From Methanomassiliicoccaceae archaeon (GTDB taxonomy: Archaea > Thermoplasmatota > Thermoplasmata > Methanomassiliicoccales > Methanomassiliicoccaceae): a stretch of DNA of 64,000 nucleotides. Below the pieces are notes generated by a model that did not search any database, was not told the origin of the DNA, and worked only from the letters and a program-made list of their open reading frames with translations. A program made the translations under genes and the position numbers. The DNA is taken from positions 512,001-576,000 of the forward strand of contig JAXGZN010000002.1 of the NCBI GenBank assembly GCA_040776945.1, in the 5' to 3' direction. Within the stretch, counting starts at the first letter, position 1. Each line of letters begins with the position of its first letter. Of the stretch, positions 10,644 to 22,119 are shown one piece after another.

Positions 10644-11234
10644 ATGATGGGATTGGATGAGAACGATTTGAACATCCTCAACGTTCTCCAGACCAATGGT
10701 CGACTATCCTATCGGCAGATATCCGAGAGGATCAGGATATCTGTTCCCACGGTGAGCAGCAAGATCGGCAACCTAGAGCGGATAGGCATCATCAGCGGTT
10801 ATCACGCCCGACTCGACCCTGAGAGGATGGGCGAGTTCAGCGCCATGGTGACGGTGAAGGCCCGCCCCTCGGAGCTGCCTGTGGTCATACGCCATTTTAA
10901 AAGTGATGACCAGGTGCGGCAGGTGTTCCTGCTGACCGGCGGTCGCCTTCTCCTCATATGCACATACGTGGATGTGCGAGCGCTGAACGAGTTTGCCTCC
11001 AAGCTAGCTTTGATCCCTGAGATATTGGACTATGACGTTGCTAACGTGATAGGCGTGGCCAAGGAGCTGCACAGAGCGGTCGTGGCCTCTGGGGCATCGC
11101 CGACCGCCAAGTGTGCCAATTGCGGGATCGAGATACGAGGGGGTGCCCTCCGCCTTAAGAAGGGTTCCTTGGTCCATCATCTATGTTCCGAAGGCTGCCT
11201 CGCCGCTTTCCGCGGCCGTCTGGGTAAATTATGA
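10644..11234 (+). CDS. Lrp/AsnC-type HTH regulator with C-terminal TRASH domain (CopR/CopT-like)
   Basis: LDENDLNILNVLQTNGRLSYRQI wHTH; CANCG...HHLCSEGC TRASH motif; divergent from copA. Confidence 0.85.
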   Translation: MMGLDENDLNILNVLQTNGRLSYRQISERIRISVPTVSSKIGNLERIGIISGYHARLDPERMGEFSAMVTVKARPSELPVVIRHFKSDDQVRQVFLLTGGRLLLICTYVDVRALNEFASKLALIPEILDYDVANVIGVAKELHRAVVASGASPTAKCANCGIEIRGGALRLKKGSLVHHLCSEGCLAAFRGRLGKL

Positions 11235-11290: not shown

Positions 11291-12055
11291 TCAGCGGTCG
11301 TCGGAGAGCCGGCTCTCAGGGGTCCCTAGGAGCAGATCGGGCAGCGACCTCACGCTGTCGATGAACACAGAACAGCCGGCCCTTATCCAATCATCGCGCC
11401 CGAAGGTGCCGCTCAGAACACCGATGAAGCCGGCCGAGACCGAGCGGGCGCAGCTGAGGTCCATCCCATGATCGCCAACCAAGACGCAATCTACGGCCTT
11501 GAGCCCCATCATGCCAGCGATCCTCTCCATCGCCTTGCCGTTCGGTTTTGCCTCCTCCTCAGGAAAATCGTCCCGGCAGATCATCGGAACCGTCATAAGG
11601 TCCAGACCAGCGTAGTGTATGGCGGCCTGGGCGTATGCACGGGACCCACGGGTCAGGATACCGATGGCGAGGCCTGCCCCCTCGATACTAGCGAGACAGT
11701 CCTCGGCACCTTCGATCGGAGTGGTGTCGGCAACGTGCTCTATCTCCGTCATGTTCATGATGTCGCTCATGGCCCGATGCAACTGCGGGACTTTTCCCCC
11801 TAGACCATTGGCCTTTAGATAGTTCACCGCTTTTGCGAGATCATCGGCGGTGGTCCTTCCGCCTTCAAGCTCTGATGCCGGGATGCCGTGGGCGATGAGC
11901 CCTCCAACGATCCGGAGCCTCATCAGGCCGAAGTTGACGGTGGAATTGATGAGCGTGCCGTCAAGATCGAACACGACGCCGCGGACGCGCCGACCGAGGT
12001 TGCGAGGAACGATCACGCTGTCCTCATCACCCTCCGGATATTTAGTGAGGTCCAT
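11291..12055 (-). CDS. HAD-superfamily hydrolase (phosphoglycolate phosphatase-like)
   Basis: FDLDGTL, ILTRG, KPNG, VGDHGMD. Confidence 0.85.
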   Translation of the reverse strand: MDLTKYPEGDEDSVIVPRNLGRRVRGVVFDLDGTLINSTVNFGLMRLRIVGGLIAHGIPASELEGGRTTADDLAKAVNYLKANGLGGKVPQLHRAMSDIMNMTEIEHVADTTPIEGAEDCLASIEGAGLAIGILTRGSRAYAQAAIHYAGLDLMTVPMICRDDFPEEEAKPNGKAMERIAGMMGLKAVDCVLVGDHGMDLSCARSVSAGFIGVLSGTFGRDDWIRAGCSVFIDSVRSLPDLLLGTPESRLSDDR

Positions 12056-12141
12056 GCATGCTCATTATCAATAGAAATAATAGCAGGCCAGATGGCTATC
12101 TGCAAGGCGTCATTACCAGTTTTGATATTTAAAGGTATTCG

Positions 12142-12170
12142 GAGCATGCTCAACTACCTCTTTTATATTT
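12142..12170 (+). promoter_or_regulatory. Palindrome GAGCATGCTC followed by the TATA box of the repeat-peptide gene
   Basis: GAGCATGCTC at 12142-12151; TTTTATATTT at 12161-12170; SD-like GGTGAGG at 12202-12208. Confidence 0.6.
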
Positions 12171-12212
12171 CAAAAACCAAAACGGTCTAAAAAGGAAGAC
12201 CGGTGAGGAAAG

Positions 12213-12434
12213 ATGAAAGCAAGAACAATGACCCTGATTGGATTCGTAGCGCTCTTATTGGCCGCGTTCGGCACGGTCGCAGTGGTAGCTGACGTGGCCT
12301 CGGTGAACCTCATCATTCCAGGAATAGACCCGCACATCATCCCGGGCATCGATCCTCATATCATCCCCGGTATCGATCCGCACATCATTCCAGGAATAGA
12401 CCCGCACATCATCCCGGGCATCGATCCTCATTAA
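12213..12434 (+). CDS. Secreted precursor peptide: signal peptide plus 5x IIPGIDPH
   Basis: MKAR n-region, hydrophobic h-region, VVA|D cleavage-like site; own TATA box, SD and terminator; repeats differ only synonymously. Confidence 0.85.
   Translation: MKARTMTLIGFVALLLAAFGTVAVVADVASVNLIIPGIDPHIIPGIDPHIIPGIDPHIIPGIDPHIIPGIDPH
12312..12431 (+). repeat. Five tandem 24-bp coding repeats, pattern A-B-C-A-B
   Basis: A=ATCATTCCAGGAATAGACCCGCAC, B=ATCATCCCGGGCATCGATCCTCAT, C=ATCATCCCCGGTATCGATCCGCAC. Confidence 0.95.
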
Positions 12435-12438
12435 GCTC

Positions 12439-12480
12439 ATTGCCTCTTGCCCCCCTCGAGGCAATATATTTTTTATTTTT
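12439..12480 (+). terminator. Hairpin plus T-tract between the convergent peptide and STAND genes
   Basis: ATTGCCTC (12439-12446) pairs with GAGGCAAT (12458-12465), followed by long T runs. Confidence 0.65.
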
Positions 12481-12481
12481 C

Positions 12482-15172
12482 TCAGGCCAGGCTAGCAAGG
12501 GCCTGCTCGACCTCTTTTTTTAGATTCTCCGCAGACCCATGCGTAGTGAGCTGCAACGCCTCCTGAAGCAGACCGCTTGCGCCCTCTTTATCGCCGTTCT
12601 TTATGAACTGCTGGGCTATCTCATACAGCCAGCGCCCCAGAAGTAGGGGCGCGTCTTGCCTTCTGATGGTTTCCAAGGCATCGGTGAACTCGGCCTTGGC
12701 CCACTCCCACTCCATTCTCTTGTTGAAAATATAGCCGCGCATCAGGTGCAGGTCCGCCAACAGAACATTGTTCCCGAGCTTCTCGAATATCTTGCTCGCT
12801 TGGTTGATATGCTCTTGAGCCTGTTCCAGCATGTCGATCTCCACATACACGACCACAGCGTTCCTGAGCGCATATCCTTGCAGCTCCAGGTTCCCGGAGG
12901 TGCGGCCCATTTCAGCCGCCCGCTCGTGATATTTGACCGCCTCAGAATAGTTGTGCACCTCTGCCAGGCTTGTACCAAGACCGATGCATATCTTGGCGAT
13001 ATTGTCTACATCCCCTGTCCTTTCTATGACCTCCAGCGCCTCCTTTTTATATTTGATGGCCTGGTGATGGTCGATCAATGACGAGTACACGCGCCCGATG
13101 CCATACAAGGCCAATCCCAGACCGATATCGTCCATAGCGCTTTGTGCAAGTTCCATAGAACGGCGGAAGGCAACCATTGCATCTTGGTGGCGGCCTCGGT
13201 TCTGCAGAACCCCTCCCAGGTCGTAATAGGTCTCCACCAGTGCGTGAGGGTCTTTCACGTCCTCCGCCAACCCAAGGCTCCGCTTGAGATATTCCTCGGC
13301 CTTATCGAACACCGAGCGCCTAAGGTAGATAGCGCCAAGCCTGCGGTTGACCTCAGCTAGCAGTCTGCGGTCCGTTTGCGGATCGCTCAGGCCTATGATC
13401 TCCTCGAACCTGGTTATCGCCTGGTCCCACTCTCCGCGAACCTCTAGGACATCGCCCTCGAGGAGAAGAAGCTCCATCTTCTCACTTCGATCGATGTTAT
13501 CGCACTGTGCCCTAAGAGATGTGAGGAGAGGTGCGAACGGAAGGCTGTAGCCCTTGGATATGATGTCCCGGCCGCTGCCTGCCGCGATCCGCACCGCGGT
13601 GCTGTACTCCTTGGCCATCAAGCAATGGTACAACGCCTCCACGTGCGCTGGAGCGGAATTATCCAAGAGGTAATACCTGGACGCTGCCTTGTGATAGGTA
13701 ACGCGCTGCCGCGGAGAAAGCCGGGAGTAGAAGAAGTCGCGCAGCAGGTCATGCATCCCGATCATGCGACCTAAGGACTCATGCATCAGCGATTTGGAAA
13801 GGAGTGAATCTATGGTATCATAGTCGACGAGGTAGTCCTTGTACTCCATCTCCTTCTGGAAAAGACCAAGGTCTTTGGCGATCTCTTCCTCCATGGTGAA
13901 GAAAGCGTCAACGAGCACCGGATAGCGGAACACCGAGGCGATGTCCATTATCCTGCGCTCGGTTATGTCGAGCTTGGAATATACCTCCTGCTCAATGAAC
14001 ATGCGGACGTTCTTTCCCAGAGCGCTCTGCGGACCGTCCACCAGCTCCAAAAAGAGAGGATGCCCTCGGGTGGCCCGGTATATGTCCATCAGCTCGTGCT
14101 CGGGCAGTTCGCGATTCCGCATGAGGCGTAGAGAGCTCTCAACATCCAGGCCCTCCAGCATCATCTCCTTGACCTGCCCCTTGAAGACGGCCGCACGCGA
14201 GTAGAACGAGGGGATCTCACGACTTGTGCAGATCAAAGAGACGTCAGAGATGGACTCAAGAACGATCACCATTGCGGACAGGAACTCTTGCACCGTCCTG
14301 TCCCCTTTCTGAACATCGTCGATGATGAACACCGTTGGCAGGTCCTGGAGGTCCATCTCCAAGATCCCGCATACCTCTCCTACCGCCGGGCTGTCCGTCC
14401 TAGAAAGATATCGCTCAAGCCCCTTCTTGCCGAGCTGCGAAAGGAATTCCGCGATCGGCGTGAGAAGGATCTTTAGGTTCACCCATTCATGGACCCGATA
14501 CCAGTATACGTGCCTCTGTTCCCTTATGTCCTGGACGAACTTCGCGAGGAGAGTGGTCTTCCCGATCCCCGGGATGCCGCAGACGGCCATTATGCTCGCC
14601 GTATCAGAGTTGAGAAAGTCGATAAGTTCGGCCATCTCTTTCTGCCTTCCATAGAAGCTGCGGACCGTTGGCTTGCGATCGGTGTAATCCACGAACCTCC
14701 GCTCCTGCTTAACTTTCCCCTCGTGGAAAGAAGAGCAGTCAAAGCTCCCCCTCGACACGCTGATCGCGAGGTCGAGGAAGGCATATCTCTTCGGCAGATA
14801 CAGGGACAGCTTGCCCAGCTCGTCCTCATGCACCTTGCCATCAAAATCGATAATGTTGATCTTGGTGCGTTCGATCTCGAGCTTGAGATTGAGGGCGTTC
14901 TGATAGCCGCTGGGAGTTAGGAAGTAGACCTTTTTTACACTGGCGAACCCCTTGACATGTCTGGTGTGGACCTCGACCACGCCTTCCCCTTCCATGCTAT
15001 TTACGATCTTGGAGACATTGTTCCGTCCGACATCGACAGCCTCAGCTATCCCTTCCTGGGTAACGGTCGCCGGAGCGTCAGGATCTTGCTGATACCTCTG
15101 GTATGCCAGGAGGTGCAGGATGACCCTCTCACGCACGGTAAGCAGGGACTTCCTGGAGGAGCGGTTCACCAA
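12482..15172 (-). CDS. wHTH - STAND-class P-loop NTPase - TPR regulator
   Basis: N-terminal wHTH (TQEGIAEAVDVGRNNVSKIV..KKVYFLT); FYGRQKE, Walker A GIPGIGKT, Walker B VFIIDD, TSRE, GHPLFL; C-terminal TPR-like repeats. Confidence 0.85.
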   Translation of the reverse strand: MVNRSSRKSLLTVRERVILHLLAYQRYQQDPDAPATVTQEGIAEAVDVGRNNVSKIVNSMEGEGVVEVHTRHVKGFASVKKVYFLTPSGYQNALNLKLEIERTKINIIDFDGKVHEDELGKLSLYLPKRYAFLDLAISVSRGSFDCSSFHEGKVKQERRFVDYTDRKPTVRSFYGRQKEMAELIDFLNSDTASIMAVCGIPGIGKTTLLAKFVQDIREQRHVYWYRVHEWVNLKILLTPIAEFLSQLGKKGLERYLSRTDSPAVGEVCGILEMDLQDLPTVFIIDDVQKGDRTVQEFLSAMVIVLESISDVSLICTSREIPSFYSRAAVFKGQVKEMMLEGLDVESSLRLMRNRELPEHELMDIYRATRGHPLFLELVDGPQSALGKNVRMFIEQEVYSKLDITERRIMDIASVFRYPVLVDAFFTMEEEIAKDLGLFQKEMEYKDYLVDYDTIDSLLSKSLMHESLGRMIGMHDLLRDFFYSRLSPRQRVTYHKAASRYYLLDNSAPAHVEALYHCLMAKEYSTAVRIAAGSGRDIISKGYSLPFAPLLTSLRAQCDNIDRSEKMELLLLEGDVLEVRGEWDQAITRFEEIIGLSDPQTDRRLLAEVNRRLGAIYLRRSVFDKAEEYLKRSLGLAEDVKDPHALVETYYDLGGVLQNRGRHQDAMVAFRRSMELAQSAMDDIGLGLALYGIGRVYSSLIDHHQAIKYKKEALEVIERTGDVDNIAKICIGLGTSLAEVHNYSEAVKYHERAAEMGRTSGNLELQGYALRNAVVVYVEIDMLEQAQEHINQASKIFEKLGNNVLLADLHLMRGYIFNKRMEWEWAKAEFTDALETIRRQDAPLLLGRWLYEIAQQFIKNGDKEGASGLLQEALQLTTHGSAENLKKEVEQALASLA

Positions 15173-15225
15173 GCCAGAATGAGGATATTAGGAATAAAAT
15201 GTTTCTAATAAATTCAGCAAAAAAA

Positions 15226-15251
15226 GAGCATGCTCAAAATCGTATTATATA
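15226..15251 (+). promoter_or_regulatory. Second GAGCATGCTC palindrome plus TATA box in the STAND/DUF835 divergent region
   Basis: GAGCATGCTC at 15226-15235; TTATATA at 15245-15251. Confidence 0.6.
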
Positions 15252-15294
15252 CGCACAAGGAGAAAATAGGTATGAAGAATACAAGGTGATCGGA

Positions 15295-15843
15295 ATGAAC
15301 AACGGTTCCAAGATATCCCTGCTCCTTGAGGACTATCCTCGGAATGGCTATCACATATACTCCAAGATCGTTGGTCGCTCCACCAGCGGCCTCTGCATTT
15401 CCCGCCTGCATCCCGAATACGTGGGCCAGAAGTACGGCCTGGAGATGTCCAAAAGATACTGGCTAAGCGGCCAGAGCGGCGTTGACGTGATCTCCCCTAA
15501 GTCCCTTAACCACCTCCTCAAAGTGATCCGCCAGGAGCTTAGGGGCAGATCGGGAGGAACAATATTCCTCGACGGACTGGAATATCTTCTTCTATTCCAC
15601 GATATGAACAGGATACTTGGCATCCTAGAGCAGATCGATTCCCTCCTCAGGGAGGCCAAGGTGGAGCTCATCGTGGCTATGGACCCCCTGACCTTCGAGC
15701 AGAAGGACCTCGATACGCTTTATGCGGCCTTCCCTCACTCTTCCAGTGAAGAGATGATGGCAAGGCTGTCTGCCCAGGGCCCCTCGGCCATGGCCTCGAC
15801 CAGAGCGGTGTCCGCACCTCCCAGGGCCAGTCTGCGGGTCTGA
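15295..15843 (+). CDS. DUF835 domain protein (inactive KaiC/RecA-like)
   Basis: GLCISRLHPE, YWLS, ISPKSL, IFLDGLEYL, MDPLTF; GGTGA SD before ATG 15295. Confidence 0.8.
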   Translation: MNNGSKISLLLEDYPRNGYHIYSKIVGRSTSGLCISRLHPEYVGQKYGLEMSKRYWLSGQSGVDVISPKSLNHLLKVIRQELRGRSGGTIFLDGLEYLLLFHDMNRILGILEQIDSLLREAKVELIVAMDPLTFEQKDLDTLYAAFPHSSSEEMMARLSAQGPSAMASTRAVSAPPRASLRV

Positions 15844-15955: not shown

Positions 15956-16510
15956 TCAGATGCATTCACTAGGGGTCACGATCTCGGCGAAGCGCCTGAG
16001 GCGGGCAACATATCGCGGGTCCATGGACAATGGGTCCAGAGGGACGAGCATGAGGGCTCTCGAGGCCATGATCCCATCGTTCACCTGTTCAAGGAACATC
16101 TGCACTTTGGTGGGGTCGTTGAACAAGGTCAAATACTCCACGCCCTCAAGGAGCACGACCGCGTTCCTCTTGCCCATTAAGAACGTCGAGACACGCTGCG
16201 ATATCCTGTGAAGCTGGTTCGGCGGAATGTTGGCAGCACCCGGCCGCTCGCTCAGCCAAGCGCATTCCAGCGATACTCCGGGCATCTGCTCTTGAAGCAG
16301 ATCTGGGTGCAGGCGGGTGACACACAGTGCCTTTGAGCCGGAAAAGACGAAATCCTGCAATATCCTCAGCGTCCTCTCCATCTTCTTCTCGCAAACGAAA
16401 TATATCCTTCCGAAATCAAAAAGGAAATCCTCTCCGGCGCTCAAGCTCACAAGGTCGGCACTCAATGTGTTGCCTCTCTGAGGAATCGGCACGGACGAAT
16501 TCACTTCCAC
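15956..16510 (-). CDS. DUF835 domain protein
   Basis: ALCVTRLHPD, WLSE, IPPNQL, VLLEGVEYL, LDPLSM. Confidence 0.8.
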   Translation of the reverse strand: MEVNSSVPIPQRGNTLSADLVSLSAGEDFLFDFGRIYFVCEKKMERTLRILQDFVFSGSKALCVTRLHPDLLQEQMPGVSLECAWLSERPGAANIPPNQLHRISQRVSTFLMGKRNAVVLLEGVEYLTLFNDPTKVQMFLEQVNDGIMASRALMLVPLDPLSMDPRYVARLRRFAEIVTPSECI

Positions 16511-21818: not shown

Positions 21819-22119
21819 TGTCAGGTGAGGGTAGTAGGCCCCCTTCTGTTTCAGGCAGCATTCAACTAAGCACCCTACCCGTCGGTCCTGAGCTGTCATC
21901 CCGACTGTTTGGGCTTGCTCCAGTGGGGAGTCGCCGTTTCACCAATTCCATGGCCAACGTCACTGCCGAGCAGATCACCCTCGGCCATGGCTGTGTCGTT
22001 TCTGCGCCCTTGCCCTGGCTCTCACCAGATCGCTTGCGCGATCCACCTTTCTCGCGGAGGGGGGACCTTCCTCAGCTGGGTCGAAGACCCTACCGTCGGC
22101 CGCCCTCCCTCTCCTGACA
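21819..22119 (-). ncRNA. rnpB: Archaeal RNase P RNA
   Basis: Reverse strand has GAGGAAGGTCCCCCC (P4 5' strand) and AACAGAAGGGGGCCTAC (P4 3' strand); terminal P1 pairing TGTCAGG/CCTGACA. Confidence 0.92.

Follow-up and report, generated by a model that had tools for sequence, protein, structure and literature searches.

Features of the locus

We analysed a 64,000-nucleotide stretch of the genome of a Methanomassiliicoccaceae archaeon (2.17 Mb, 59.6% GC), which spans C2:512001-576000 and is referred to below as the window. The subject of the analysis is a box of 12 nucleotides (nt), GAGCATGCTCAA, that lies on both sides of a gene for a regulator with a winged helix-turn-helix (wHTH) domain, a STAND-type nucleotide-binding oligomerization domain (NOD) as well as tetratricopeptide repeats (TPR), and that we consider here as the candidate operator of this regulator. 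The features in question are the following.

12142-12153, + strand: site A, box GAGCATGCTCAA upstream of the peptide-gene promoter, with the core AGCATGCT at 12143-12150
12161-12168, + strand: TATA box TTTTATAT of the putative peptide promoter, beginning 10 nt past the 8-bp core and 52 nt before the ATG at 12213
12213-12434, + strand: peptide precursor gene (73 amino acids, aa), downstream of site A
12482-15172, - strand: gene of the wHTH-STAND(NOD)-TPR regulator (896 aa), between both boxes, the proposed binder
15226-15237, + strand: site B, box GAGCATGCTCAA in the divergent intergenic region of the STAND and DUF835 genes, 54 nt from the STAND start codon
15244-15251, + strand: TATA box ATTATATA of the putative DUF835a promoter, 51 nt before the ATG at 15295
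15295-15843, + strand: DUF835a gene, with an inactive-KaiC-like domain, downstream of site B (Pfam PF05763, E 2e-20)
15956-16510, - strand: DUF835b gene, convergent with DUF835a (Pfam PF05763, E 9e-23)

The DUF835 domain is labelled 'iKaiC' in the available text of PMC5847659. The box contains a perfect 10-bp palindrome around the 8-bp core. An earlier note on this DNA had reported the 12-mer at both positions, and this was borne out, since the window contains exactly these two copies on the + strand and 100 of 100 dinucleotide-preserving shuffles of the window contain none. The same note placed the TTATAT word 10-12 nt past the palindrome. We measured 11 nt at site A (palindrome end 12151, TTATAT start 12163) and 9 nt at site B (15235 and 15245), so the range is slightly off for the latter. 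A function of the box as an RNA hairpin or terminator was rejected because a loop-less perfect 10-bp palindrome cannot form a useful hairpin.

A further, partial copy of the box had been described next to the HAD hydrolase gene:

12056-12064, no strand assigned: partial copy GCATGCTCA at the start of the HAD gene

This sequence exists as described; GCATGC occurs within 200 nt to the left of site A in only one of 19 orthologous loci, that of the window itself, and the partial copy is therefore judged a chance occurrence.

The box in the genome and a third promoter

The 10-nt form GAGCATGCTC occurs 10 times in the whole genome, compared with about 4.7 occurrences expected under a first-order Markov model. 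AT-rich surroundings (local GC 0.39 and 0.31) are confined to the two copies beside the STAND gene, the other eight having a local GC of 0.52-0.68. Similarly, among the 55 copies of the core AGCATGCT, local GC falls below 0.45 at three, namely at sites A and B and at a third site on contig C1. When the genome was scanned for AGCATGCTCAA with at most two mismatches, followed by a TATA box at 6-9 nt, this returned the three sites A, B and C, A and C once more as read on the minus strand, and a pair of identical matches at the ends of insertion sequences (IS); the reversed-pattern control gave none. The motif is thus not scattered at random over the genome, a distribution that the earlier note had named as one that would speak against an operator. 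Besides the two IS matches, which carry two mismatches, the box with a TATA box at the right spacing marks three promoters. The IS matches come from two copies of about 1.65 kb (C1:615568, + strand; C1:463127, - strand), each encoding a transposase-like open reading frame (ORF) of 516 aa and carrying AGCATGCTTCA and TTTAATA near its left end; these box-like matches are probably fortuitous.

The third promoter lies outside the window and comprises two features.

C1 ~659191-659214, - strand: site C, box and TATA box (TAGCATGCTCTA, 7 nt, TTTAATA)
C1 ~659060-659230, - strand: RNA-like element, about 60-170 nt long and immediately 5' of an adenylate-kinase-like gene

Corresponding elements were found in other genomes (loci L022-L029, L045-L052 and L133-L141). 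In the 13 loci measured, a conserved 5' box, GGAGAAGGUCCRCGGGG, starts 35-56 nt past the TATA box, and the 3' part consists of a GC-rich hairpin, whose sequence differs between genomes, followed by a U-run. No consistent ORF was found in the element. Eight third-site loci gave no Rfam family at gathering score, and in E-value mode four loci returned only RAGATH-10, at E 2.3 and elsewhere in the locus. When the own genome was searched for antisense targets of the conserved box, allowing up to four mismatches, nothing convincing emerged. From these features we read the element as a candidate small RNA. Its 5' box is similar to that of RNase P RNA, an identity that was nevertheless rejected because the RNase P RNA of this genome sits in the window (RF00373, 219.8 bits, 21823-22115, - strand).

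Conservation at orthologous loci

Two sets of orthologous loci were compared, the first consisting of the 20 best loci and the second of named Methanomassiliicoccales assemblies with at least 44% identity, whose species overlap with the first. In the first set, the site B core is present at all 20 loci. At 19 of them the core, as AGCATGCTC, is upstream of the regulator match at a distance of 45-66 nt to its beginning, and the value of 225 nt at the remaining locus, L014, stems from an N-terminally truncated match. The site A core precedes a small ORF within 1.5 kb of the STAND 3' end at 19 of the 20 loci; at the twentieth (L033) it is 1.8 kb away, behind a longer peptide gene. In the second set, the upstream core was found at 48 of 48 loci with enough flanking sequence, in every case followed by a TATA-like word, and the downstream core at 41 of 41, in 40 cases with a TATA box, while no locus of this set has a core inside the 2.7-kb regulator gene. 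Taking both sets together, 67 of 68 loci have the site B core at a distance of 45-92 nt to the beginning of the STAND match, L014 being the exception. Close relatives carry the variant GAGCATGCTC and distant ones TAGCATGCTC. In the aligned loci, down to a regulator identity of 50%, neither the 8-bp core nor the CAA after it changes, although the flanking bases do. The conservation in orthologous promoters that had been proposed as a check thus holds at every locus examined with enough flank.

The order peptide gene, regulator, DUF835a, DUF835b is conserved as a cassette. At each of the 20 loci, site B is followed by a DUF835-like ORF that shares the same conserved N-terminus, and DUF835a by a convergent ORF of similar size. 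No box was found upstream of DUF835b at one mismatch or fewer. The wHTH of the STAND protein is the sole DNA-binding domain in this conserved cassette. The gene to the left of site A varies, being a HAD hydrolase gene in some genomes and an NAD-epimerase-like gene in others.

Some neighbouring observations are recorded here. In the window, a gene for an AsnC-type HTH regulator with a C-terminal zf-FCS-like motif (10644-11234, + strand) adjoins the HAD gene, and an AsnC-like ORF stands at the corresponding place in genome G026 (L031 325-927), showing that synteny is kept to the left of the module. Locus L079, from a record titled uncultured Leptospirales bacterium MAG, has a 49%-identical regulator with a box 78 nt upstream, as in Methanomassiliicoccales, and is probably a mis-binned archaeal contig.

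Co-occurrence of the box and the regulator

We examined 41 related genomes, including the own genome. Of these, 28 contain an orthologue of the regulator, either full-length or split (47-90% identity), and the other 13 show weak N-terminal matches or none. The pattern AGCATGCTCAA-N5-9-TTWWAW matches 31 of the 41 genomes, comprising all 28 regulator-positive genomes and three of the 13 regulator-negative ones, and its reversed-pattern control matches none of the 41. A looser pattern added single matches in G017 and G026, but its own reversed control matched two genomes.

The third promoter shows a similar distribution. Among the regulator-positive genomes, 26 were examined at the kinase locus, and every one of them has the box, the TATA box and the RNA-like element 5' of the kinase gene, with the core reading AGCATACT in G024; G034 lies outside this count, as does G010, where the query did not detect the kinase. 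All three are absent from the same intergenic space in eight of the ten regulator-negative genomes examined (G012, G013, G014, G016, G017, G023, G029 and G037), and they are kept in the other two, G026 and G027; G018, G020 and G033 are outside this second count. Genus g5 is divided, with the regulator and the full set of sites present in three of its genomes and all of these lacking in three others. This distribution suggests that the element is found only where the STAND module is, or recently was.

The two regulator-negative genomes that keep the third site, which are also two of the three negative genomes matched by the first pattern, were inspected further. In G026 (L031 2950-3070) the peptide and regulator genes are missing and one hybrid box, with an A-type left flank and a B-type right flank, precedes DUF835a. 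The two boxes are direct repeats, and the hybrid is consistent with a recombination event between them, which would leave such a site. Either the loss of the regulator in G026 is recent, or another factor can use the box. In G027 a box precedes a peptide gene (GLPGMTPHLIQ repeats) 280 nt from the contig end, and the regulator may be unassembled there.

These results also bear on whether the two copies in the window could be chance occurrences, or a functionless remnant of local duplication. The box is just a 12-mer, and GAGCATGCTC occurs eight more times in coding DNA of the genome. However, the empty shuffles, the invariance of the core while its flanks diverge, and the empty reversed control in the 41 genomes already contradict this explanation, to which we attach almost no credence.

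The STAND regulator

The regulator matches AAA_16 (1e-10), ATPase_2 (5e-10) and NB-ARC (2e-8) in Pfam, all above the cut-offs, indicating a STAND-type NOD, and the motifs GIPGIGKTT and IIDDVQ are kept in 10 orthologues. The matches to TPR_12 (2e-25) and to TPR_MalT (6e-12, at its cut-off) indicate a C-terminal repeat sensor. The closest solved relative by sequence is the archaeal MalT homologue PH0952 of Pyrococcus horikoshii (6mfv), with E 6e-40 over the NOD, and the TPR region shows weak similarity to NprR (E 5e-9) and to Rap proteins (E 1.5e-7) and a match to the TPR of AfsR (E 6e-7). Judged by these similarities, the regulator is a member of the PH0952/MalT branch of STAND factors.

At the N-terminus, Pfam HTH matches alone are below the cut-offs. 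The predicted model of residues 1-165, built on 31 sequences, has a predicted local distance difference test (pLDDT) score of 91.5 and resembles a MarR/ArsR-like winged helix; the best folds were MarR-family MepR (E 4.5e-4) and small archaeal wHTH chains with template modelling (TM) scores of 0.7-0.77. The recognition-helix segment GRNNVSK is invariant, apart from one V-to-I change, in 10 orthologues (50-100% identity), paralleling the invariant core of the box. The TPR sensor is the least conserved domain, with a mean pairwise identity of 47% versus 59-63% for the other domains.

Other ORFs with an N-terminus of this kind were also seen. Nearly all of the 41 genomes, regulator-negative ones included, have ORFs of about 425-480 aa, often as tandem pairs (C1:294424-294723 and equivalents), whose first 100 residues resemble the wHTH with about 30-40% identity.

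Box and recognition helix in distant homologues

A distant set comprised 30 homologue loci from other Thermoplasmatota with 28-35% identity. None of these 30 loci has AGCATGCT at both equivalent places. In three of them (31-34% identity) the regulator gene has a different perfect palindrome, centred on CATG, on its upstream as well as its downstream side, with two palindrome types among the three loci. The palindrome is ACACATGTGT in L101, where the recognition helix reads DRAYVSK, and GAACATGTTC in L110 and L115, where it reads GRSTVSK. In all three loci the upstream palindrome precedes a DUF835-like gene. Both copies in L101 are followed by CAAAAA, 3 nt and a TATA box, giving the same 9-nt spacing that the window shows. 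What follows the downstream copy is a small secreted-looking protein in L101 and, in L110 and L115, a Pro-rich ORF of 10-12 aa with a strong ribosome-binding site. Pro-rich ORFs of this kind (e.g. MDPDLPPKSPN, MLGPTPPPDDPL), with a strong ribosome-binding site, stand in the place of the precursor in L110, L115, L106, L123, L132 and L125. A AATTGTTC-type box seen by eye in L106, L123 and L132 was not counted, since its upstream copies may be just a ribosome-binding site plus start codon.

The CATG at the centre of the box and the R..VSK frame of the helix are therefore constant, and the outer bases of the half-sites vary together with the two residues that follow the arginine. Because the box changes in step with the recognition helix, this points to the STAND protein itself as the binder. 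Although the sample is small, such co-variation would be expected if the wHTH reads the box and would be hard to explain by an unrelated factor.

A different possibility is that the box is a real cis-element bound by some other factor, such as a wHTH paralogue of about 440 aa or an unlinked regulator, with the STAND gene merely one of its targets. Intact boxes at DUF835a and at the third site of G026, which has no STAND gene, can be explained in this way, and candidates are at hand in the paralogues (35% identity), which occur in nearly all genomes, and in the AsnC-type regulator about 1 kb away, with its correspondingly placed counterpart in G026. However, the box is gone together with the STAND gene in eight of the ten negative genomes examined, where the paralogues are still there; distant STAND homologues pair different palindromes with different recognition helices; and the conserved cassette contains no further DNA-binding gene. 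We therefore regard another binder as quite improbable.

The peptide precursor

The precursor begins with a hydrophobic signal-like N-terminus, continues with five copies of IIPGIDPH and ends in PH; it matches no Pfam family. The orthologous precursors after site A contain 4-13 tandem copies of a lineage-specific xIPxxDPH unit (IPGIDPH, IPVSDPH, IPGNSPH, IPFIDPH, LPGVGPH and others), which stand back to back in close relatives and are separated by spacers of 5-25 aa in distant ones. Many assemblies are masked or collapsed within these repeats. In some lineages, (M)PLPGVGPH or PLPGVGPY repeats occur without an obvious signal segment. The precursor is predicted to be exported and processed. A complex prediction of the TPR region (440-896) with the precursor repeats (34-73) scored 0.00, was made without control runs and has no bearing either way. 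The diverging repeats and the variable TPR would fit a diversifying ligand-sensor pair on a constant DNA-binding module, a fit that is no proof.

Promoter geometry and the sign of regulation

In the aligned loci the position of the box upstream of a consensus TATA box is clear. The TATA consensus is TTTTATAt at the A sites (n=19) and TtTTAtATA at the B sites (n=20), and the TATA box starts 10 nt past the core. At site A, a second AT-rich box mirrors the first.

12125-12133, - strand: mirrored AT box ATATTTAAA (read on this strand as TTTAAATAT), 8-9 nt to the left of the box

In the alignments this AT box is kept as aTATTTAAA at A sites and as ATATttAa at C sites, ending 8-10 nt leftward of the core. 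It thus also occurs at C sites, where no adjoining leftward gene was seen and where the upstream neighbour, encoded on the kinase gene's strand, terminates immediately ahead of the box. The mirrored box may be a divergent TATA box for a leftward gene, or a second TBP site of a bidirectional promoter; alternatively, it may be part of an extended footprint of the protein.

Metatranscriptome contigs from Logan (four libraries, 2017, one habitat) cover positions 12311-12431, where the peptide repeats lie, the greater part of the STAND gene, and DUF835a from 15286-15293 on, and none of those listed spans 12005-12310 or 15163-15285. Their word depths are 238-1523 for the repeat contig (inflated by tandem copies), 4-13 for STAND and 36-110 for DUF835a, values that cannot rank the genes, show starts or prove transcription.

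The arrangement of the AT-rich boxes bears on whether the STAND protein would activate or repress. As a repressor or switch it would block TBP/TFB between TATA-like boxes, and a ligand would relieve or impose the block. AT-rich TATA-like boxes do flank the core on both sides, within 10-20 nt, at all three site classes; the evidence for the STAND protein as the binder applies equally to repression; and most characterised archaeal regulators are, to our knowledge, repressors. However, the core overlaps neither the TATA box nor the expected start, and the fixed 10-nt offset fits the geometry of activators known from precedent. MalT, a STAND factor with a TPR-type sensor, is an activator. So is AfsR, according to the available text of PMC10936776. 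On the other side, the arbitrium peptide turns off its TPR regulator, as described in the accessible part of PMC9232636. Taking these points together, repression by the STAND protein appears unlikely.

The box as a probable operator

We consider it likely that the box, (G/T)AGCATGCTCAA, serves the adjacent wHTH-STAND-TPR factor as its operator, probably an activating one, with feedback through the peptide and a regulon of three promoters. This function, suggested in the earlier note, gains support from the distribution of the box, its presence in orthologous promoters, its co-occurrence with the regulator and the co-variation with the recognition helix, all of which are comparisons of sequences. 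That the protein physically binds the box, that it activates and does not repress, and that the TPR has the peptide for its ligand is what we infer. Activation is favoured because of the analogy with MalT, AfsR and archaeal upstream activators.

In the proposed mechanism, the MarR-like wHTH domains of two protomers would read the two half-sites of the AGC-AT-GCT palindrome. The box abuts the B recognition element (BRE) and the TATA box, where a ligand-activated, ATP-bound multimer would most likely aid the recruitment of TBP/TFB. The first target would be the secreted multi-copy peptide precursor, giving feedback; the second would be DUF835a, and autoregulation is possible since the regulator's own gene leaves the same box divergently; the third would be the small RNA-like element beside the adenylate-kinase-like gene on the other contig.

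Several observations weigh against this reading. Although it has no regulator, G026 still carries the box at DUF835a and at the third site, and the wHTH proteins of about 440 aa (35% identity over 100 aa) may bind the box. The co-variation rests on three distant loci with two palindrome types, and most of the 27 remaining distant loci showed no shared box. A bulky multimer could occlude rather than recruit because TATA-like boxes flank the core. In addition, the counts overstate the support because related genomes are not independent.

A wider interpretation, which we hold tentatively and rate at somewhat less than even, is that the box belongs to the cis-regulatory core of an archaeal peptide-pheromone (quorum-sensing-like) circuit, and that this circuit is part of a diversifying family of signals, receptors and operators in Thermoplasmatota. 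Here the secreted precursor with its 4-13 xIPxxDPH copies would be sensed by the TPR of an ATP-driven STAND receptor, which would bind the palindromic box and boost the genes of the peptide and of DUF835 together with a small regulatory RNA. A few other Thermoplasmatota genomes appear to have related modules, each with its own peptide or tiny Pro-rich ORF, palindrome and matching helix.

Relation to known systems

In the PlcR-PapR system, one of the RRNPP peptide quorum-sensing systems of Firmicutes, the gene of an exported pro-peptide lies beside that of a cytoplasmic TPR regulator, and a palindromic box at the peptide gene, the regulator gene and the targets gives feedback. The locus described here is like PlcR-PapR and the RRNPP family in its logic, having a small pro-peptide gene that adjoins the gene of a TPR-sensor regulator and a shared palindromic box. 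It differs from RRNPP systems in that the DNA-binding domain is a wHTH rather than an XRE-type HTH, with an ATP-driven NOD between this domain and the sensor, that the promoters are archaeal TATA/BRE promoters, and that the precursor contains 4-13 tandem putative signals. RRNPP receptors are recognised by an HTH fused directly to the TPR and by homology to Rap, NprR, PlcR or PrgX, neither of which describes the protein studied here. The adjacent small exported pro-peptide gene that also marks RRNPP systems is present, with export and processing predicted from its sequence. Because the receptor is a STAND NTPase with a MarR-like wHTH, we do not count the system as a member of RRNPP. The arbitrium system of SPbeta phages (AimR-AimP-aimX) has a peptide and a TPR regulator that binds an operator, as set out in the accessible part of PMC9232636. 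The present locus is similar in combining a peptide, a TPR regulator and a small non-coding output, here the candidate small RNA at the third box. Unlike arbitrium, it is a cellular and not a phage system; homology between the two is not demonstrated, and the RNA has no Rfam family.

MalT is a STAND activator with a TPR-type sensor, and it differs from the protein described here in its C-terminal LuxR-type HTH and asymmetric repeats. AfsR (SARP-NOD-TPR), described as a STAND activator in the available text of PMC10936776, has a SARP domain and direct repeats at the -35 region. The present system shares with both a STAND NTPase with a TPR-type sensor and sites beside the core promoter, whereas it has an N-terminal MarR-like wHTH and one short perfect palindrome upstream of an archaeal TATA box. 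The archaeal activators Ptr2, TFB-RF1 and EarA are reported to bind directly upstream of the BRE/TATA. Their sites have the same position as the box, but they belong to other families (Lrp-type and others), lack a STAND module and recognise different sequences.

For PH0952 the structure was solved, and the available text of PMC6468293 does not name an operator, a target gene or an inducer. For the present locus, in contrast, it is possible to name a cis-element, three promoters as targets and a gene for a candidate ligand. Literature searches, covering full texts outside subscription journals, found no description of the box, of a ligand or operator of PH0952-type factors, or of such archaeal peptide signalling.

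An ordinary-looking operator, as we read the sequences, would anchor a previously undescribed archaeal circuit of signal, receptor and RNA. For PH0952-type factors the locus offers testable candidates in the 12-bp box, the three promoters and the neighbouring peptide gene. The co-variation of helix and half-sites offers a small natural specificity code for the wHTH, and the pair of box and regulator could serve as an inducible promoter in archaeal genetics. The host group, the Methanomassiliicoccales, are methanogens of digesters and guts, and if the peptide is the ligand, they would possess a peptide-based cell-cell signalling circuit in Archaea.

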